Of a stretch of 42,407 nucleotides of DNA, positions 1-41,710 are shown in pieces; position 1 is the first letter of the stretch; the number at the start of each line of letters is the position of its first letter. Made by a program: the position numbers and the translations under genes. The DNA lies in the IMG/VR virus record IMGVR_UViG_2565956608_000007, positions 1 through 42,407 of that record, one strand, 5' to 3'. A model generated the notes under the pieces. The model was not told the origin of the DNA, did no database searches, and saw only the letters and a program-made list of their open reading frames with translations. Source of the stretch: a virus. Lineage: Duplodnaviria > Heunggongvirae > Uroviricota > Caudoviricetes.

Positions 1-1506
<1,506 letters not shown>

Positions 1507-1814: not shown

Positions 1815-2987
1815 CTACAGCGCGGCTGAAATCGCGGTTTTACCGTCATATTCAGCCAGGTATTTACCGTAGTTGCGGAATATCATTTCCGGCCCTTTGT
1901 GGCCCATCTGTCCGGCAAGCCAGAATAGGTTAACGCCCTGGCTAATATGCTTGGTGGCGAATGTGTGCCGCGTCTGGTACGGGTTACGATAGCGCACGCC
2001 AGCTTTTTTCAGGGTCGGCACCCATGCTTTTTTACGGATAGCGTCGGCGTTCGCCCAGGGGTCTCCCGTTTTCGGGTCGCTGAATATGAACTCACTTTTC
2101 ATGAAGGTGTATTGCTTCTGCGCCTGCAGGGCCGCCAGCGCCTCACTGTTCAGCTCCACCTTTCGGGTACCGGCTTTTGTCTTGGTGCCTTTAAGTACCC
2201 CTACGACACTGGCCGCCTGAACGTGGGCTGTGTTCGCGATGGTGTCGAGATCAGGCCAGCGCAGCGCGCACAGTTCGGAGCTCCGCAGACCGGTATTGAA
2301 AGCAAAGCGGAACAGGTTTTCCCATTCCGGGTACCTGCAGCTCTGGTAAATGGCGAGGGTCTCCGCTGGCGTGAACGGGTCAACCTCGTAATCGTCGGCG
2401 CTCGGGCTGCTGTCGATCACGTGGTACCGGCTGGCGCTGACGAGGGTTACCGGGTTAATGGTCAGCAGGCCATCCGTAACAGCTTCATCGATGGCGCTGC
2501 GCAGAAATGAAAGGTTATTCCTGGTCGTTTTCAGTTTTGTTTTCCGGCTGGCTATCCAGTTTTTAAGGACCGCTGGCGTCAGTTCTGACACGTGGAGTTT
2601 ATGCAGGGCTGACAGCGCCGACAGGCATTTTTCATAACCGTTGATAGTCGACGGGGACAGGTTGCGGTTCTGGCAGATTTTCAGGTACTCGTCCAGGTAA
2701 GACTTTATGTTTTTGGTTTTCTTCACCACCCCGAACAGCTCCAGTTTTTTGGAGTTGGGGAAATATTTCGCATATTCAAAGGTGCCACTGACGATCTGGT
2801 TTTGTATCTCCCCGAGCAGGCGCTCGGCGTACTTAACACCGCGCGCGTTTGCTTCCATTTTGGAGAGGGGCTCCCGGCACAGAACCCCTTTGTATGTGAA
2901 AGTGATAACCAGAGTGTCGCCAGTTTTATGCTGGCGGATGGTTACTCCTCTTGGGAGAGATAATGATCCTTGTTCTTTCTTGCCCAC
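1815..2987 (-). CDS. int: tyrosine integrase (lambda-type site-specific recombinase)
   Basis: 390-aa ORF with C-terminal R..HxxR..Y catalytic signature (RHTFATKHI ... RNYGKY); 3' end abuts attL. Confidence 0.9.
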   Translation of the reverse strand: MGKKEQGSLSLPRGVTIRQHKTGDTLVITFTYKGVLCREPLSKMEANARGVKYAERLLGEIQNQIVSGTFEYAKYFPNSKKLELFGVVKKTKNIKSYLDEYLKICQNRNLSPSTINGYEKCLSALSALHKLHVSELTPAVLKNWIASRKTKLKTTRNNLSFLRSAIDEAVTDGLLTINPVTLVSASRYHVIDSSPSADDYEVDPFTPAETLAIYQSCRYPEWENLFRFAFNTGLRSSELCALRWPDLDTIANTAHVQAASVVGVLKGTKTKAGTRKVELNSEALAALQAQKQYTFMKSEFIFSDPKTGDPWANADAIRKKAWVPTLKKAGVRYRNPYQTRHTFATKHISQGVNLFWLAGQMGHKGPEMIFRNYGKYLAEYDGKTAISAAL

Positions 2988-3151
2988 TTCGAAACCTCCG
3001 TTAAGTCAATCCAGCGTTCTTTAACGCCATCGACTTTTAATACATGTACTCCCTCCTTCCATAACCCCCTTTGTATCCGTTTGTTAACGGCTTCTACCGT
3101 TTCCCCCGCGTCCCTGCAGTATGTAGAAAGGGGTACACAGTCAAGACTCAT
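2942..3151 (-). CDS. xis: excisionase-like DNA-binding protein (start chosen at internal ATG)
   Basis: Small ORF overlapping the int start by 46 nt; lambda Xis-like pattern (ETVEAVNKRIQRGLWKEGVHVLKVDG); upstream in-frame start at 3202 also possible. Confidence 0.55.
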   Translation of the reverse strand: MSLDCVPLSTYCRDAGETVEAVNKRIQRGLWKEGVHVLKVDGVKERWIDLTEVSKWARKNKDHYLSQEE

Positions 3152-3440
3152 GGCTGACCTCCTGCCCGAAAGCCTGGGCATTTTCCAGTTCATTAGCGGC
3201 ATAAATCAGGGCGTTGTGATGCGCGCGAAAACCACCATCAAGTTCGCGAGCAGCTCTGTCGCGCAAGATGTCGATCGCAGCCTGATAGTCATTCTGGTAA
3301 TCGGCCGAACTGGCCGGCAGCTCCGCCAGCACCATCAACATGTTTTCCGGGTCGATGGGAATGGTGGCGAGCCCAAGCTCTTTGGCCTCCGCCGCTAAAC
3401 GGGTCCAGCGTTCAATAATTTCAGTGGTACCTTTTTTCAT
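3141..3440 (-). CDS. hypothetical protein (early left operon)
   Basis: 99-aa ORF with GAGG ribosome-binding site upstream of the ATG at 3438-3440. Confidence 0.5.
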   Translation of the reverse strand: MKKGTTEIIERWTRLAAEAKELGLATIPIDPENMLMVLAELPASSADYQNDYQAAIDILRDRAARELDGGFRAHHNALIYAANELENAQAFGQEVSHES

Positions 3441-3448
3441 GGCATGCC

Positions 3449-3544
3449 TCAGAAACCTATCAAAAATTTATACTCAATCAGCGCGCCGAACACGACGGCC
3501 ACCAGCAACAGGCCAAACAGCAGAGAAAGGAAGAATGCTTTCAT
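3449..3544 (-). CDS. small hydrophobic peptide, 31 aa (MKAFFLSLLFGLLLVAVVFGALIEYKFLIGF)
   Basis: ATG overlaps the stop of the upstream gene as ATGA; AAGGA ribosome-binding site; single predicted transmembrane helix; below the size cut-off of the ORF track. Confidence 0.35.
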   Translation of the reverse strand: MKAFFLSLLFGLLLVAVVFGALIEYKFLIGF

Positions 3545-3762
3545 TTTCTGTCCTTCAGTTTGCTGTATCGTTCATGGCTCATTACTTCCCAGTTCTGGCC
3601 GCCGTCTCGGGACAGCAGCCGCCAGCGGCGATTAACCCTCAGGCTCAGGTTTCCGGAGCGGTGCATACGGCAGGGATGAATTCGCCTGGCTCTGAACTGG
3701 CGGAGCACATGGACCGCCTGCAGGTGCACCCACTCAGGAATTCGTATCGCTGTCAGGGCCAT
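3541..3762 (-). CDS. hypothetical basic (Arg-rich) protein
   Basis: ORF from internal ATG at 3760-3762 with AGGAGA ribosome-binding site; tight packing with neighbours. Confidence 0.4.
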   Translation of the reverse strand: MALTAIRIPEWVHLQAVHVLRQFRARRIHPCRMHRSGNLSLRVNRRWRLLSRDGGQNWEVMSHERYSKLKDRK

Positions 3763-3946
3763 TGTCCTTCTCTCCTGCTGGTGGGGTGATCGTGTAACCG
3801 GCGCGTTCAGCCATCCATAAAAAAGTCTCCAGCGATGCTGTAACCTCTCCGTTCTGAACCGGGCGCGCGTGGATAACTTTCCCATTCTCGATTGTCAGCA
3901 CGATATTTACTGGTTCGTGCGTGATAATTGGTGTCTGATCACTCAT
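3734..3946 (-). CDS. hypothetical protein
   Basis: 70-aa ORF from ATG at 3944-3946 with GGAG ribosome-binding site; overlaps the upstream gene end by 8 nt. Confidence 0.45.
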   Translation of the reverse strand: MSDQTPIITHEPVNIVLTIENGKVIHARPVQNGEVTASLETFLWMAERAGYTITPPAGEKDNGPDSDTNS

Positions 3947-4304
3947 GGCTTGTCTCCGCTGTGACTGATTTTTTTTTCTTGGCAAACTCGACCACCTCAG
4001 CAATGAGATCGTCGATTAATGCCTTTCCGCTTTCTGTCAGGAATTCACCGCTGCCATTAACATCAACAGCGCTGCTGTAAATTCCCTTGATAGCTTTTAC
4101 GCCTTCGACATTCCCGTACTCACTGATCGCAAGCCTTTCGAATTTTCTCAATAATCCATCAAGAAGAATCTCTGTTAACTCGACCGTGTTAATGCCGCCT
4201 TTATTGAGCTTAATAACAAGGCAGTTACTGCCTGTTTTACGCTGGTGGCGTAATAACGCTGCCTTTAAAATTCTGCGTCGGTAGGTGTTGATTAAATTAT
4301 CCAT
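3939..4304 (-). CDS. hypothetical protein
   Basis: 121-aa ORF with strong GAGGAGG ribosome-binding site upstream of ATG at 4302-4304. Confidence 0.6.
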   Translation of the reverse strand: MDNLINTYRRRILKAALLRHQRKTGSNCLVIKLNKGGINTVELTEILLDGLLRKFERLAISEYGNVEGVKAIKGIYSSAVDVNGSGEFLTESGKALIDDLIAEVVEFAKKKKSVTAETSHE

Positions 4305-4338
4305 TGCGCTGCTCCTCCTCCAAACTAATAACTATTTC

Positions 4339-4518
4339 CTATTCTTTTTCGGTCCAGTCATGAATATCAGAGGCTAGGTCATAAACAAGAGCGCAAATCG
4401 TTTTAAGTTGGAAGTGGTCGAGCTTGTCGTGATATTCAAATAAAGTTTGCGACAGACCCGCTAGTTGCTCATCTTTGATATTCACGCCCTGAATATCCTG
4501 CCTTGTTAAAATGCTCAT
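4339..4518 (-). CDS. hypothetical small protein
   Basis: ORF in early left operon; start chosen at internal ATG (MSILTRQ...); weak ribosome-binding site. Confidence 0.3.
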   Translation of the reverse strand: MSILTRQDIQGVNIKDEQLAGLSQTLFEYHDKLDHFQLKTICALVYDLASDIHDWTEKE

Positions 4519-4624
4519 AATTAACGTCCGTATGCTTTTTTTAGGTAAAGACGAGCGATTACCTCGTAACCGCAAGCCGCATAAAGGCATGCTGTTCTAT
4601 ATGCCGATTTATTAATGATGAAAG

Positions 4625-5017
4625 TCATACGAAGCGCCTCACAGCCAAAGAAGCGACCACCCGACCGTGAATTTTGATTTCTTTCTGTTCATCAGCATTA
4701 AGGGTGAAAGTTTCGTAATGATGGTTATCAGAGATGATTTTTAATGAGCCATCAGCTAATGGCTCAATTCTCTTAATGAAAAGGCATGGGCGACCAAAAG
4801 CATCCATTGTGTAAACATAAATTCCAGAGGTAAGCGCACTTCCACCGCAATCAACGAAAGCCACAACCTCACATGGTTCGATGGTCGGCTGCATTGAATC
4901 ACCTTCCATCCGGCAGCTTTGAACGCGGTTGCCAAAGTCATTAATGTTGTCAGATCCGAACAGCATCTGAGGCGTTTTAATTGGCTTATTAATTGCGACG
5001 GAATTTTGCATTCTCAT
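4625..5017 (-). CDS. stand-alone S24 (LexA/UmuD-like) peptidase-domain protein
   Basis: 130-aa ORF with GDSMQP serine motif and downstream FIKRI lysine motif typical of S24 peptidases; no HTH domain; GAGG ribosome-binding site. Confidence 0.7.
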   Translation of the reverse strand: MRMQNSVAINKPIKTPQMLFGSDNINDFGNRVQSCRMEGDSMQPTIEPCEVVAFVDCGGSALTSGIYVYTMDAFGRPCLFIKRIEPLADGSLKIISDNHHYETFTLNADEQKEIKIHGRVVASLAVRRFV

Positions 5018-5077
5018 TTCCTCAGGGTGAGTTTGGCCCCACCAAGAAAGGTGTTAATTGAATAATGTTAATTAATT

Positions 5078-5509
5078 TTAAATCTTGTCGGCTTGCTTGC
5101 AGATGGTTTCTTGCAAGTCGTCTAATTTTTCATAAACGATAGTTAGCGTACCGATAGCCGACAATTCCGGAGGCATACAATCCATAGCGTTGGATAAAGC
5201 CATTCTGCAATTGCCAATATCCGCAGACCATGAATTAAGTTGATTGGAAGTTATAATGCTTGTTGGCTCTGTAAAATCACCACACTGCTCGTTTCCTGAA
5301 ATGAGCCACAGAACATCAGAATGAAGAATGTTAGCCAATTGGATTAACTGGTCAGCAAACGGAACAGTTTTTTCCGTTTCCCAGTTGTTAATGGTTTCGG
5401 TTGTTAAACCAAGATGATCAGCCAAAAAATCCTGAGACAGTCGAAGCGAAGATCTTTGATTTAATATTCTTTTGCCGATGGTTTTGGCTACGGTGATTTG
5501 AGTATTCAT
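5078..5509 (-). CDS. HTH (XRE-family) DNA-binding protein, first gene of leftward early operon
   Basis: 143-aa ORF with N-terminal helix-turn-helix (LRLSQDFLADHLGLTTETINNWE); preceded by operator-like palindromes. Confidence 0.7.
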   Translation of the reverse strand: MNTQITVAKTIGKRILNQRSSLRLSQDFLADHLGLTTETINNWETEKTVPFADQLIQLANILHSDVLWLISGNEQCGDFTEPTSIITSNQLNSWSADIGNCRMALSNAMDCMPPELSAIGTLTIVYEKLDDLQETICKQADKI

Positions 5510-5552
5510 TTCATTGGCTCCGTTGTTTGCCGATGAATGAACTTTAAGTCAT

Positions 5553-5572
5553 GCAATAACTTATTGCAATAA
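5553..5572. promoter_or_regulatory. OL-like operator: overlapping palindromes GCAATAAcTTATTGC and TTATTGCAATAA
   Basis: Perfect 12-bp palindrome at 5561-5572 and 15-bp near-palindrome at 5553-5567 upstream of the leftward operon; the TTATTGCA motif recurs once in the cI-cro intergenic region (6457-6464). Confidence 0.5.
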
Positions 5573-5669
5573 CAAAACTTATTTTTCTTTTGCGATTTAG
5601 TTTAATGCATTGATTTTTTTGATTAAATTTTGTTATTAAACTGCATACTTACAGCTACAGACAAAGAAA

Positions 5670-5689
5670 AAGCCGCTTAAAAGCGGCTT
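5670..5689 (-). terminator. Rho-independent terminator downstream of the repressor gene
   Basis: AAGCCGCTT/AAGCGGCTT inverted repeat, followed on the minus strand by a T-rich tract. Confidence 0.5.
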
Positions 5690-5710
5690 CAAAAGGTGGG
5701 GTGTTGAAGG

Positions 5711-6409
5711 TTAGAGCCTATTGTAATTGATTGATTCATGCATTATGGCTTTACCCATCACGTAAAGGTCATCTTGGTTTTCTTCCGTGATATACCATTT
5801 CTCATATGCCGGATTATCCGATAAGACTGCCAGCCTGTTTCCCTGCATCTGGAGACGTTTTAGGTGAAATGTTTTACCAAAAACAAAAACATACACACCA
5901 TCCGTTAGAAAGTGTCGGACGGAAATGTCTACGAAGACACGATCACCGGAATTGAACGTGCTGGCCATGCTGTCGCCATTGACGGTCATTACTTTTACGA
6001 CATCTTCACTACGATTCCCGAAGAGGGATTTTGCATGTTGAGTCGTGAACTCAATAGCGTGTAAAACCTCCACATATTCTGAAAGCATGAACGTGCCAGG
6101 CCCTGCACTCACTGAAAGGTCAAGAACCTCGACCCTGAATATGCCAGCGTTATCCTTTACCTCCCTTTCGGGCATGGTCTCTATCACATAGCCCTGTCTA
6201 TGAGGCACATGATTTTTTCCAGTTGATAGCCATTCAGGGCTCACACCCAGCGCATTAGCAATCTCAACCAACTTACGTGTTGTGTTGGTTTTGCCTGCAA
6301 CAAGACGCCAGATAGCTGGTTGCGAAACCCCAACTTTCATCGCTAATTCTGCCTGTGTAAGGCCTGCGTCAACCATCGCTTTTTGAAGACGATCTGAGAA
6401 TGTGTTCAT
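5711..6409 (-). CDS. cI: CI-like prophage repressor (HTH + S24 autopeptidase domain)
   Basis: N-terminal HTH (LTQAELAMKVGVSQPAIWRL) and C-terminal S24 motifs (GDSMAS ... FHLKRL); divergent from Cro-like gene. Confidence 0.85.
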   Translation of the reverse strand: MNTFSDRLQKAMVDAGLTQAELAMKVGVSQPAIWRLVAGKTNTTRKLVEIANALGVSPEWLSTGKNHVPHRQGYVIETMPEREVKDNAGIFRVEVLDLSVSAGPGTFMLSEYVEVLHAIEFTTQHAKSLFGNRSEDVVKVMTVNGDSMASTFNSGDRVFVDISVRHFLTDGVYVFVFGKTFHLKRLQMQGNRLAVLSDNPAYEKWYITEENQDDLYVMGKAIMHESINYNRL

Positions 6410-6518
6410 ACCAATAAGCCTATACAAAAAGTTATTAAGTGGCAAATACGATAAGTTATTGCATAAAGTTATTCAAGGCTATACTCTTTCCCTATGTTCA
6501 ATAACTTTTGGTATTTTT
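6410..6518. promoter_or_regulatory. cI-cro intergenic operator/promoter region (OR-like)
   Basis: Four copies of AGTTATT/AATAACT (6430-6436, 6454-6460, 6467-6473, inverted at 6500-6506) between divergent repressor genes. Confidence 0.55.
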
Positions 6519-6746
6519 ATGATCAATCAACATGTCAAGAGAGCTATCGATATTCTCGGCGGCCAAGCTGCATTAGCAAGGGCGTGCGGGGTTACTCAAC
6601 CGGCTGTATTTCGCTGGCTTAATGGTAGCCGGGTTAAGGCTGATCATGTCATGTCCATTGTTAAAGCTACTGGTGGTGAAGTTAAAGCCTACCAGATCCG
6701 CCCAGACCTTCCAGATACATTCCCTCACCCGGGCAATGAGGTGTGA
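6519..6746 (+). CDS. cro: Cro-like / YdaS-like HTH protein
   Basis: 75-aa product MINQHVKRAIDILGGQAALARACGVTQPAVFRWLNG; divergent from cI; start taken at internal ATG to avoid overlapping the cI start. Confidence 0.65.
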   Translation: MINQHVKRAIDILGGQAALARACGVTQPAVFRWLNGSRVKADHVMSIVKATGGEVKAYQIRPDLPDTFPHPGNEV

Positions 6747-6747
6747 T

Positions 6748-6957
6748 ATGTCGCACTCAATCACTACCGAAAACCAAATTAAGCCATTGGATATCGATTA
6801 TCGCGATCCGCGCGGTGTGATTGTGCATGTCACCGGCTGGAATCGGGATAAGCAGCAGGTGTATTTCACCAGGCAGAATTATCCGCATGAATGCATGCAG
6901 CCTGTCTGGAAGTTCCAACAATATTTTACAAAGGTCTCGGAGGCGCAAAATGCGTGA
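6748..6957 (+). CDS. hypothetical protein
   Basis: 69-aa ORF with GAGG ribosome-binding site directly after the cro stop. Confidence 0.5.
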   Translation: MSHSITTENQIKPLDIDYRDPRGVIVHVTGWNRDKQQVYFTRQNYPHECMQPVWKFQQYFTKVSEAQNA

Positions 6958-7315
6958 TTACGGAAAGGTGTCGTCTGAGTTTTGGTTAGACCAGAACGGC
7001 AACAAATGGAAAGTGCCCACGATCAAAGGTCGCCTGAAAATGCGCGTACCCTGCCATCGCGCACTACGCGAATTTGTTCTTTGGCGCGACGGTTTCAAAT
7101 GCCGTCATTGTGGTAGTCAAGACCGCATTAAATTGGTCGCAGATCACATTGTATCGCGACGTAACGGTGGGGCTCACCACCCAGACAACATGCAGTGTTT
7201 GTGTGATTCCTGCAATGCGCGCAAGGCATCCCTGGTTGATGCCAAATTCCAGCCAAGGCCTGATGTAAGTGAGGTTATTTGTTCTGATGGAGGGGTGATT
7301 GATGGCACGCATTAG
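6950..7315 (+). CDS. HNH endonuclease
   Basis: Cys/His motif CRHCG ... DHIVSRRNGGAHHPDNMQCLCDSCNARK; GGAGG ribosome-binding site. Confidence 0.75.
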   Translation: MRDYGKVSSEFWLDQNGNKWKVPTIKGRLKMRVPCHRALREFVLWRDGFKCRHCGSQDRIKLVADHIVSRRNGGAHHPDNMQCLCDSCNARKASLVDAKFQPRPDVSEVICSDGGVIDGTH

Positions 7316-39624: not shown

Positions 39625-40668
39625 TCATATTAAAGCTTTTCGTAAAAGCGTCTTCCCAATTAAAACACCTTTTCGCTCTACAGTTTTATGCGCAAAATAA
39701 CAAACTATAAATAACAATGTTAATATTTGAATGTTGCTGTTGATATATGGGATTTGTAATTTTGAAACCACTAGTGACAAAGTATACCAAATCCAGTTAT
39801 GGAACAAGTATACAGCATAAGTCATTTCAGACAGTAAATTGCATGCTTTGGATTCAATGAATTTATCTCTAAACAACCACGAAACAAGGAAAATAATAAC
39901 TCCTGTAAATGCGTAGTTGTACTGGCCCCAGAATGGATTTATTTTCTCAATGAGAGATAAATGCAGATAGAACATAATTACGATGGATGCTAAAGCAATA
40001 ACCCGATTAACTAACTTATGCTCTACAAGATACACTACTACACCGATAAACAAAAATGGCGTATACAATGTAAAGTAAGCATTATGAAAATCATTAGCCA
40101 CAGGGAAAGGGTTAATGCTGGATATAAAAAACGATACAACAAGAAGGAGAACAGTCAAAACGTTTCCTTTGTTTATTATACCAGCTTTTTTAACTAATCC
40201 CATAAACACGTAGAACATCATTTCTATTCTTAGTGTCCATTCTACGCCAGCTAATGAAAGTGGAGTGTTAAAGAAATCACCTATGAGCAAAAGTCTTGGG
40301 ATTAGTATAGTTAGAGGTGGAACACCAGCACCGTTATAATACTGAACTAACATTTCTGCAATAACTGCAAAAATGTATAAAGGATATATTCTAAAAATCC
40401 TTTTTAAATAAAATTCAAAAGTTGCTTCTTTTTGTAAAACGTGGGTTATGATATATCCTGAAACAAGAAAGAAGATTACAACCCCCATAGCCCCACCGAA
40501 ACTGGCATCGGCAAGTAGACCGTAAAATGATCTAAGTGTTACGTGGTTACTTGGATCGCTCGCCCACGAAGCTAAATCTTTGTTGAACTTGTGGCCTAAC
40601 ACCACAAGAGAGAATGCAAAGATACGCATGTAATCTAAAAAAAGAATTCTACGATTGTTCATTTTCAT
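39625..40668 (-). CDS. acyltransferase family 3 membrane protein (OafA/Oac-like O-antigen acetyltransferase)
   Basis: About 347-aa polytopic membrane protein with acyltransferase-3-type N-terminus (RILFLDYMRIFAFSLVVLGH); markedly AT-rich; located between tail genes and attR. Confidence 0.75.
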   Translation of the reverse strand: MKMNNRRILFLDYMRIFAFSLVVLGHKFNKDLASWASDPSNHVTLRSFYGLLADASFGGAMGVVIFFLVSGYIITHVLQKEATFEFYLKRIFRIYPLYIFAVIAEMLVQYYNGAGVPPLTILIPRLLLIGDFFNTPLSLAGVEWTLRIEMMFYVFMGLVKKAGIINKGNVLTVLLLVVSFFISSINPFPVANDFHNAYFTLYTPFLFIGVVVYLVEHKLVNRVIALASIVIMFYLHLSLIEKINPFWGQYNYAFTGVIIFLVSWLFRDKFIESKACNLLSEMTYAVYLFHNWIWYTLSLVVSKLQIPYINSNIQILTLLFIVCYFAHKTVERKGVLIGKTLLRKALI

Positions 40669-40809
40669 CAAAATCTTATTGTTGATGAGGCTATTTTATA
40701 GCATGAACAGCGAAATTCATAACAGGTTGGTGGTTGGGGTGGTGAAAAATCTCATCATGGAAGAAAAATCTGGCTGTCAGCGTTTATTAATGCTGGCAGC
40801 CAGCACATT

Positions 40810-41076
40810 TTACAGCCCAACCTGGCGAACTGTCGGGAACTCAGAAACCAGCCACATATCGGCCTCTTCAAACATATCCTCCAGCATGCGGTTGAGTTTT
40901 TCCCGATCGTTTTTGCTGGCATCGCTATTCAAGCCGTTCGCCTGCATCGGCTTCACCCTCACTTCGGCATCAGGGAAGATCTGGTGCACTCGCTTCGTCA
41001 GCTCAGCCAGGATAATCTCTCTGGCCCCTTCAAGTCCCTCTACATTTCGCTTGTCATAAACCAGTTCAACGAACAT
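40810..41076 (-). CDS. dinI: DinI-family protein
   Basis: 88-aa ORF resembling DinI (acidic C-terminus EEADMWLVSE); GGAGG ribosome-binding site; two LexA boxes upstream. Confidence 0.7.
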   Translation of the reverse strand: MFVELVYDKRNVEGLEGAREIILAELTKRVHQIFPDAEVRVKPMQANGLNSDASKNDREKLNRMLEDMFEEADMWLVSEFPTVRQVGL

Positions 41077-41095: not shown

Positions 41096-41135
41096 CTGTG
41101 GTTGTATACAGTATTTTTACTGTAAAAATAAACAG
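41096..41135. promoter_or_regulatory. two tandem LexA (SOS) boxes
   Basis: aCTGTggttgtatACAGta at 41096-41111 and taCTGTaaaaataaACAGtg at 41120-41135, both fitting CTGT-N8-ACAG; 20-60 bp upstream of the dinI-like start. Confidence 0.7.
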
Positions 41136-41347: not shown

Positions 41348-41710
41348 TGGTGGAGCTGGCGGGAGTTGAACCCGCGTCCGAAATTCCTACATCCTCGGTA
41401 CTACATGCTTAGTCAGTCTTTACATTCGCTTGCCAGCTGCGGACGGACACGCCACTAACAAACTAGCCTGATTAAGTTTTAACGCTTCAACCCCAGGCAG
41501 GGCTTCCACGCGATCTCTTTTGGGTTTGACCTCTCTTGATCCCCGTCCTAAGAGCGGAGGCTAGGGAGAGAGGGCTCTAAGCAGGTTATTAAGCTGCTAA
41601 AGCGTAGTTTTCGTCGTTTGCGACTATTTTTTGCGGCTTTTTACGAGGCCAACCGCCCCTCGGCATGCACCTTGGGTTTCGCAAATCCCGTCGAATCCAG
41701 AATCAGCCCC
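41348..41710 (-). ncRNA. ssrA: tmRNA (transfer-messenger RNA, SsrA)
   Basis: Minus-strand sequence begins GGGGCTGATTCTGGATTCGACGGG and ends ...GGTTCAACTCCCGCCAGCTCCACCA; 363 nt; directly downstream of smpB. Confidence 0.95.
41355..41384. repeat. attR core inside ssrA (GCTGGCGGGAGTTGAACCCGCGTCCGAAAT)
   Basis: 29/30 identical to 1663-1692. Confidence 0.65.

Follow-up and report, generated by a model that had tools for sequence, protein, structure and literature searches.

A CI-related, stand-alone S24 peptidase domain encoded as a conserved early-left gene of HK97-like prophages

Domains of the S24 family are otherwise known as self-cleaving modules of repressors or as polymerase accessory proteins of the UmuD/HumD type. 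The protein described here, S24-short, represents a third form: it is a stand-alone S24 Ser-Lys peptidase domain of 128 residues, encoded by a prophage within a 42,407-nucleotide stretch of tailed-phage DNA (IMG/VR record IMGVR_UViG_2565956608_000007, positions 1 to 42,407, here called the window). A similar design is found in UmuD' and in HumD of phage P1 (with N15 gp26 and phiKO2 gp23): the phage proteins consist of an S24 domain only, of about 115-130 residues, start at the position of the cleavage site and keep the catalytic Ser and Lys. The C-terminal domain of CI-type repressors, with the Ser of a GDSM motif and the Lys of an (I/L)KR motif as its dyad, is 31-35% identical to S24-short. 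An engineered C-terminal fragment of LexA reportedly cleaves LexA in trans (work attributed to Kim and Little, Cell 1993), and such enzyme-only fragments of LexA and lambda CI resemble S24-short in that the catalytic S24 core lacks its own cleavage site, an architecture that an enzyme acting in trans requires. UmuD is stated to cleave intermolecularly in a passage of PMC9926225, which cites McDonald et al. 1998. However, the engineered fragments are laboratory constructs and the cleavage of UmuD takes place within a homodimer, whereas S24-short is natural, conserved and separately encoded, with a predicted activity. 'CI' proteins devoid of a helix-turn-helix (HTH) domain, of unknown role, were also noted in a genomic survey of Shiga toxin (Stx) phages (PMC8951638).

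The gene of S24-short and the gene in front of it, named HTH-143 here, occupy the following positions.

4625-5011, minus strand: S24-short, stand-alone S24 Ser-Lys peptidase domain of 128 residues, second gene of the operon of the phage left promoter (PL)
4895-4897: codon of Ser39
4772-4774: codon of Lys80
5012-5077, minus strand: intergenic region between HTH-143 and the S24 gene, 66 nt, with three in-frame stop codons
5078-5509, minus strand: HTH-143, first gene of the PL operon, 143 residues

The open reading frame (ORF) as listed extends over 4625-5017 and has the 130 codons given in a preliminary description of this DNA, and the start common to the family is the second ATG, at 5011, which gives 128 residues. 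This start is preferred because it is preceded by a GAGGA Shine-Dalgarno sequence 7 nt upstream and the first ATG is missing in some relatives. The product matches the Pfam Peptidase_S24 profile (PF00717) with E=3.2e-9 and 37 bits (cut-off 23.3), the match spanning only positions 34-116 of the 116 positions of the profile, and shows the S24 beta-fold. In a multiple alignment, the Ser39 of GDSM and the Lys80 of FIKR correspond to S119/K156 of LexA, S149/K192 of lambda CI and S60/K97 of UmuD, so that the loss of the dyad, named in the preliminary description as a reason to abandon its view, was not observed. The N-terminus of S24-short aligns just past the cleavage sites of LexA, lambda CI and the CI of the same prophage. 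No match to an HTH or other DNA-binding domain was found in S24-short, in which only 38 residues precede the catalytic Ser, and no Ala-Gly or Cys-Gly was found about 35 residues ahead of this Ser. The sole Cys-Gly of the protein (C55-G56, in 'DCGG') is situated after the catalytic Ser and not at the canonical N-terminal position. Neither the S24-short sequence by itself nor the profile of its family retrieved anything from the PDB in sequence searches. S24-short is therefore an 'enzyme-only', pre-cleaved S24 catalytic core of the CI type, in agreement with the earlier view that the catalytic domain stands by itself, has kept its dyad and lacks a canonical cleavage site. It differs from CI-type repressors in having neither the HTH nor the cleavage-site hairpin and in starting roughly at the point where they are cut.

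An origin from the S24 domain of a CI-type repressor is indicated because S24-short is 31% identical to the S24 domain of the CI of its own prophage, matches phrog_6201 ('CI-like repressor', E=6e-41), which also matches CI C-terminal domains, and has HTH+S24 repressors as its nearest relatives outside the family. When a profile was searched against 1.84 billion cluster representatives, scores below 1e-29 were confined to a few representatives of the family, and the next matches, at about 1e-14, were proteins of 200-250 residues, most of them with recognisable HTH and S24 domains; the family thus forms a compact and sharply separated clade. The homology comparison proposed in the preliminary description places S24-short closest to the C-terminal domains of CI proteins and not in the UmuD clade. 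The protein is also much closer to LexA and CI domains than to the maturation peptidases of the S24/S26 clan, such as the nickel superoxide dismutase (Ni-SOD) maturation protease SodX and signal peptidase I. In contrast to these, S24-short is predicted to be a cytoplasmic protein, neither a signal nor a membrane segment being apparent, and a gene for a dedicated precursor substrate was not found adjacent to its own gene. Proteins of the family are named 'S24 family peptidase' or 'helix-turn-helix transcriptional regulator' by NCBI; the latter name and 'CI-like repressor' are wrong, because S24-short has no DNA-binding domain. The family as such is already present in databases (phrog_6201), and what is new is that a CI-derived S24 domain without a cleavage site has become fixed among the core early-left genes of a phage group.

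Among 5.8 billion proteins searched, the family accounts for 146 clusters, almost all with a length of 128 residues, and S24-short is carried by 334 IMG/VR loci. The named hosts are Enterobacter, Citrobacter, Kluyvera, Lelliottia, Kosakonia, Salmonella and E. coli, and the named phages are Escherichia phages LMessi and Fostie, Cronobacter phage ENT39118 and Aeromonas phage AsXd-1, the last two being classified in Hendrixvirinae. The family is under strong purifying selection, which includes the active site: the median ratio of nonsynonymous to synonymous substitution rates (dN/dS) is 0.088 (2263 pairs from 71 distinct coding sequences), and Ser39, Lys80 and the blocks flanking them, including GDSMQPTI, are invariant across 66 distinct proteins; one 90%-identity cluster (P0065) has Leu at the position of the catalytic Ser. 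GDSM and IKR persist in the divergent members P0158, P0160 and P0162 (45-59% identity), and the synteny is the same in related divergent loci, which have S24 genes of their own with 46-66% identity to these queries. S24-short is a core early gene in a widespread group of HK97-like prophages, found in Enterobacter, Citrobacter, Salmonella, E. coli, Cronobacter and Aeromonas. Four conserved cysteines were considered as a possible metal site and rejected, as only C33 and C55 persist in the divergent members. In three IMG/VR loci (L122, L166 and L110) and in phage CharmingMan (H17), the S24 gene is frameshifted or split, or this is true of P97, a gene for a 97-residue protein that is one of those found upstream of it (see below), which suggests that S24-short is occasionally lost despite the strong overall selection.

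These data bear on the possibility, raised in the preliminary description as its own refutation, that HTH-143 and S24-short are the decaying, functionless remnant of a duplicated or frameshifted repressor gene. The two ORFs are indeed in the same frame, only 66 nt apart, and S24-short resembles the C-terminal domains of CI proteins. However, three in-frame stops lie between them, HTH-143 has as its C-terminal half a helical module with no relation to S24, the length of S24-short is fixed at 128 residues in genomes of Enterobacter, Citrobacter, Kluyvera, Salmonella and Escherichia and in Cronobacter and Aeromonas phages, dN/dS is as low as 0.09, and the S24 gene also occurs behind unrelated upstream genes. 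A frameshifted repressor or pseudogene was ruled out on these grounds, and the chance that the locus is a functionless remnant is negligible.

A further possibility, also put forward in the preliminary description, is that S24-short is a UmuD-like factor. In this case, it might serve as a pre-activated analogue of UmuD' that, together with the host UmuC, would help to replicate the damaged DNA of an induced prophage, and its overall design, a phage-encoded S24 domain beginning at the cleavage point, is that of P1 HumD. S24-short nevertheless has no significant similarity to UmuD (BLASTP, E=0.56) or to HumD (E=0.42), the NCBIfam UmuD model PRK10276 does not match it at E < 0.1, and its nearest relatives are CI repressors. 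HumD is regulated by LexA (its LexA site is annotated), whereas S24-short appears to be regulated by CI and has no LexA box nearby: none was found within 4200-6800, and matches across the window were at chance level. S24-short keeps the full GDSMxPT motif, which is degraded in HumD (ADSHH). Moreover, phage ENT39118 carries both S24-short and a separate, genuine umuD-like gene whose product is 50% identical to UmuD. Membership of the UmuD/HumD group was ruled out by the absent similarity, the absent LexA box and the presence of both genes in ENT39118, and a UmuD'-like role of S24-short is considered very unlikely.

The control of the gene may be deduced from the region between HTH-143 and the divergent cro-like gene, which contains the following features.

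5510-5540, minus strand: conserved PL leader, TCATCGGCAAACAACGGAGCCAATGA, with a GGAG Shine-Dalgarno sequence
5541-5569, minus strand: putative PL, with -35 TTGCAA (5569-5564), a 17-nt spacer and -10 TAAAGT (5546-5541), recognised by eye
5552-5568: perfect 17-bp palindrome of the type TGCAATAA(C/G)TTATTGCA, in the window TGCAATAA-C-TTATTGCA, read as the left operator (OL)
5561-5572: 12-bp palindrome TTATTGCAATAA, overlapping the 17-bp palindrome
5669-5690, minus strand: terminator of the cI transcript, an intrinsic-terminator-like hairpin with a 9-bp stem followed by a T-run
5711-6409, minus strand: cI repressor gene, 232 residues from the likely ATG at 6409 (ORF as listed 5711-6445, from TTG at 6445)
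6410-6518: cI-cro intergenic region, containing the right operator (OR), with AAGTTATT-type repeats and a 15/17 copy of the palindrome at 6447-6463
from 6519, plus strand: Cro-like gene (YdaS / P22 Cro family)

Read from right to left, the minus strand thus carries cI, the terminator hairpin, an AT-rich spacer, HTH-143, the 66-nt gap and S24-short. The cI product contains HTH_3 (E=5e-10) and Peptidase_S24 (E=2e-16) domains and a SAG cleavage motif, so that the prophage has a complete CI, as had been described. The 17-bp palindrome overlaps the putative PL, and its only other near-copy in the 42 kb is that in the cI-cro intergenic region; two matches were observed in the window against 0.10 expected by chance. 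The putative PL itself scores 8/12 and the automatic promoter scan, with a threshold of 9/12, reported nothing; a sigma-70-like pair of -35 and -10 boxes is situated at the same distance from the conserved leader TCATCGGCAAACAACGGAGCC in six other immunity types. The palindrome is present wherever the CI is of the window type, even with P97 as the next gene (L097), and is absent from HTH-143 loci with other CI types (L072, L074 and L076). Each immunity type has its own motif common to the left and right control regions, for example TTTATCAA in L074, GTATTAATA in L083, AGTACTA in L005 and ACCGGCGGT in L006, and terminators equivalent to 5669-5690 were found after cI in every immunity type examined.

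Since the presence of the palindrome follows the CI type and not the HTH gene, it is predicted to be the left operator of CI, and the promoter to be the phage PL. It follows that the HTH and S24 genes are probably CI-repressed early-left genes, a control suggested by the comparison of loci. Thus, in contrast to the lysogenic gene cI, S24-short would be a separate gene of the lytic PL operon. This is consistent with the earlier view that both ORFs are real genes heading a CI-controlled leftward operon, separate from cI and beyond its terminator. The separate promoter and the operator-like palindromes of the preliminary description are both present, although the palindrome is attributed to CI and not to the HTH protein; an operator of the HTH protein itself, as in an autoregulated or toxin-antitoxin-like cassette, was ruled out for the same reason. 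A second immunity circuit, suggested at that stage, is unlikely, because the promoter carries CI operators and CI would be expected to keep it closed in a lysogen.

The PL leader TCATCGGCAAACAACGGAGCCAATGA is common to loci with HTH-143 or with P97 as the first gene, across immunity types (L005, L006, L072, L083 and L097), and looks like a recombination joint or a functional 5' element. The first codons (MNT) are also common to the window, LMessi and several P97 loci; other homologues start otherwise. A leader of about 45 nt ahead of the S24 gene (AACACCTTTCTTGGTGGGGCCAAACTCACCCTGAGGAAATG; AACACC-TTTCTT-GGTGGGGCCAAACTCACCCTGAGGAAATG; 5012-5052) is kept in about 85 loci whatever the upstream gene. 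Small hairpins in this leader, beside the Shine-Dalgarno sequence, were rejected as a feature, with one compensatory change only and no distinction from shuffled sequences.

The relation of S24-short to the gene in front of it was evaluated by comparing 80 IMG/VR loci, 7 genome loci and several phage and E. coli loci, all with a close S24-short homologue. The gene order is constant (cI, terminator, promoter region, gene X, S24 gene, rest of the leftward operon, xis, int), whereas the genes of the immunity region are combined as a mosaic: HTH-143 occurs with the CI type of the window and with two other CI types (33-39% identical to it), and the CI type of the window also occurs with a different gene X (P97 in L097). 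In the window, gene X is HTH-143, which consists of a Cro/CI-type HTH (residues about 3-70), a flexible linker (69-87) and a two-helix C-terminal module, here called SWS (88-143). It matches HTH_19, HTH_3 and Phage_CI_repr, and its structure model comprises the HTH, a disordered linker and a helical hairpin. The DicA model NF007257 gives 49 bits (cut-off 101) and covers only the HTH (residues 8-76), the RstR model gives 33 bits (cut-off 80), likewise for the HTH only, and the PADLOC matches are to generic HTH domains (RmrA, CapH N-terminal HTH). HTH-143 is thus predicted not to be a full HTH-only repressor of the DicA/RstR type, its C-terminal module being different. The SWS module has the motif SWSxDxxxC...TLxxxxxKL, is conserved and unrelated to S24, and occurs fused to the HTH, fused to an unrelated non-HTH N-terminal region (P0151-P0154) or alone (72-78 residues), which points to a mobile domain. 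Stand-alone SWS genes lie directly upstream of the S24 gene in five loci out of five (L012, L117, L131, L144 and L147), as HTH-143 does in every locus that has it. P97 was considered as a distant relative of the SWS module and rejected, the hhalign probability being 0.4%, and no known function was found for either P97 or SWS.

Scored as SWS against P97, the upstream gene was SWS in 42 of the 92 loci, P97 in 47 and neither in three; among the 85 loci with a clean 128-residue S24 gene, it was HTH-143 in 36, a SWS-only protein in four, P97 in 42 and another gene in three. The S24 alleles do not differ accordingly: their mean identity is 0.95 and 0.92 within the two neighbour groups and 0.93 between them, and identical S24-short proteins occur in both contexts. 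Therefore, the 'split' pair of HTH and S24 proteins envisaged in the preliminary description is not borne out, as upstream genes vary while alleles are alike, and HTH-143 is one of several interchangeable first genes rather than the other half of S24-short. It was also considered that S24-short forms a two-component module with the upstream protein (HTH-143, another SWS protein or P97), which would bind, regulate or be processed by it; with HTH-143, such a module would act as a split cleavable regulator, the linker containing QCG (residues 75-77) where the sites of LexA and CI lie. One of the two small families is found directly upstream in 89 of the 92 loci, and the Cys-Gly of HTH-143 sits in the disordered linker and is present in most homologues. 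However, the two families are unrelated, S24 alleles do not follow the partner, two homologues of HTH-143 have YG or FN instead of Cys-Gly, and SWS-only proteins have no domain to be cut off, which makes this module rather unlikely.

The alleles do not follow the CI type either, their identity being 0.94-0.96 both within and between types. At least 14 types of CI protein are encoded beside S24-short; they come from several S24 lineages, lambda-like and P22-like proteins being among them, and are of the S24 type in 84 of the 85 scored loci; in the remaining locus no CI could be scored. These numbers are relevant to a non-catalytic role, in which S24-short would act as a subunit poison: by forming mixed oligomers with CI or LexA, it might weaken their cooperative DNA binding and so provide positive feedback on derepression. 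Such a role would suit the origin of the protein from the dimerisation domain of CI-type repressors, its expression only once CI repression starts to fail and the almost constant presence of an S24-type CI. Nevertheless, alleles 88-98% identical occur beside these very different CI types, some of them without BLAST similarity (lambda-like, P22-like), and do not track them, and the invariance of the active site would be left unexplained; poisoning of this kind is therefore regarded as fairly improbable.

The best explanation, with a probability of roughly 40%, might be that S24-short is a putative trans-acting Ser-Lys peptidase, produced from the CI-repressed PL operon after CI repression is lifted. 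In the lysogen, CI would shut PL and S24-short would be absent. When CI is cleaved during the SOS response, or upon a fresh infection, PL would fire and the enzyme-only peptidase would be made, its substrate cleft being free of any cleavage loop of its own. Its target in trans would be one that all these phages and hosts share, and would not be matched to a particular CI or neighbour. The most plausible candidate substrates may be the exposed Ala-Gly or Cys-Gly loops of proteins of the LexA superfamily, such as residual or resident CI, host LexA or UmuD, and cleavage of such loops would reinforce derepression without RecA. A more specific variant, in which S24-short is a natural RecA-independent 'repressor-cutter' that is made once its own CI starts to fail and acts in trans on LexA-superfamily proteins in general (leftover CI, host LexA and the repressors of co-resident prophages), is doubtful; if true, it would make induction irreversible and rewire the SOS response and the competition between prophages. 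More generally, a trans-acting peptidase would add a new layer to the lysis-lysogeny switch, possibly with an interplay between prophages or between phage and SOS, and even if S24-short is not a peptidase, it would still be a clean case of a repressor domain turned to a new use.

Several points weigh against the peptidase activity proposed here. P1 HumD, which needs no cleavage activity, also keeps Ser and Lys, so that retention of the dyad alone is no proof of catalysis by S24-short. A CI-destroying enzyme made from PL right after infection should stand in the way of establishing lysogeny, but the phages concerned are temperate. Trans-cleavage known in the S24 family normally works within dimers, and S24-short has no similarity detectable by BLAST to most of the CI types with which it co-occurs. 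No invariant Ala-Gly or Cys-Gly, as a candidate substrate site, was found in the products of the neighbouring genes. The AlphaFold model is of moderate quality (predicted local distance difference test score, pLDDT, 74), and the literature search for a characterised homologue or a functional study of the S24-short family found none.

A host-conserved target could also be reached without cleavage. S24-short might, as LexA, UmuD, lambda CI and DinI do, bind in the groove of the RecA* filament and damp its co-protease activity by competition, thereby protecting newly made CI or restraining rival prophages and the SOS response. LexA, UmuD and CI bind RecA* through their S24 domains (PMC9926225), a target conserved in the host would fit the absent co-variation with phage partners, and the prophage encodes another RecA* binder, a homologue of DinI.

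40810-41076, minus strand: DinI-family protein, 88 residues (Pfam DinI, E=3e-23), at the right end of the prophage

Upstream of the DinI gene, at 41096-41135, there are two perfect LexA boxes, CTGTGGTTGTATACAG and CTGTAAAAATAAACAG, spaced by 24 bp; the gene is thus predicted to be a LexA-regulated, RecA*-modulating accessory gene in the same prophage as S24-short. However, much of the contact of RecA with UmuD and LexA is made through the cleavage-site region (PMC9926225), which is missing in S24-short, and the invariant catalytic motif would not be required for binding. A role of S24-short as a RecA* binder is consequently judged unlikely.

The preliminary description had also mentioned a defence switch. 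S24-short was compared with the defence models of PADLOC-DB 2.0, and no match was found at E up to 0.1, so membership of a defence system was rejected.

The rest of the leftward operon and the ends of the prophage contain the following genes.

4339-4518, minus strand: small gene 3' of S24-short, 59 residues from the likely start, phrog_8959
3939-4304, minus strand: gene of 121 residues 3' of S24-short, phrog_1737, with an arginine-rich N-terminus
3541-3765, minus strand: protein with a ParE-like toxin domain (Pfam PF24732, E=7e-19), early-left operon
1815-2987, minus strand: integrase
39625-40671, minus strand: multi-pass membrane protein of 348 residues, right end of the prophage

The phrog_8959 protein (59-74 residues) is usually present after S24-short in related loci. 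A phrog_1737 homologue is encoded just 3' of S24-short in all loci with downstream sequence except L097, where the sequence ends about 670 nt beyond the S24 gene. The N-terminus of the phrog_1737 protein has the conserved arginine-rich motif YRRRIxxAALxRxxRKTG, which is reminiscent of the RNA-binding arm of N-type antiterminators. The gene of the ParE-like toxin comes after that of phrog_1737 and is kept in most related loci; a small ORF (3734-3949, minus strand, phrog_340) overlaps it from upstream and may encode its partner. An Rfam scan of 2900-7000 gave nothing credible.

The host element is an HK97-like (Hendrixvirinae-type) prophage of about 40 kb, located between csiD (1-978, minus strand) and the transfer-messenger RNA (tmRNA) gene ssrA (41348-41710, minus strand). 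A 17-nt repeat, GCTGGCGGGAGTTGAAC, is present at 1663-1679, adjoining the end of the integrase gene, and at 41355-41371, the 3' end of ssrA; it is likely to be the core of the attachment (att) site, with the prophage extending over about 1.66-41.37 kb and integrated at ssrA. Another 17-nt repeat, GTGCATTTTACGTGCAT, occurs at 1743 and 41239. The membrane protein of 348 residues resembles, as judged by eye from its sequence, a protein of the acyltransferase-3 type, and its gene would then be a putative accessory gene for O-antigen modification.

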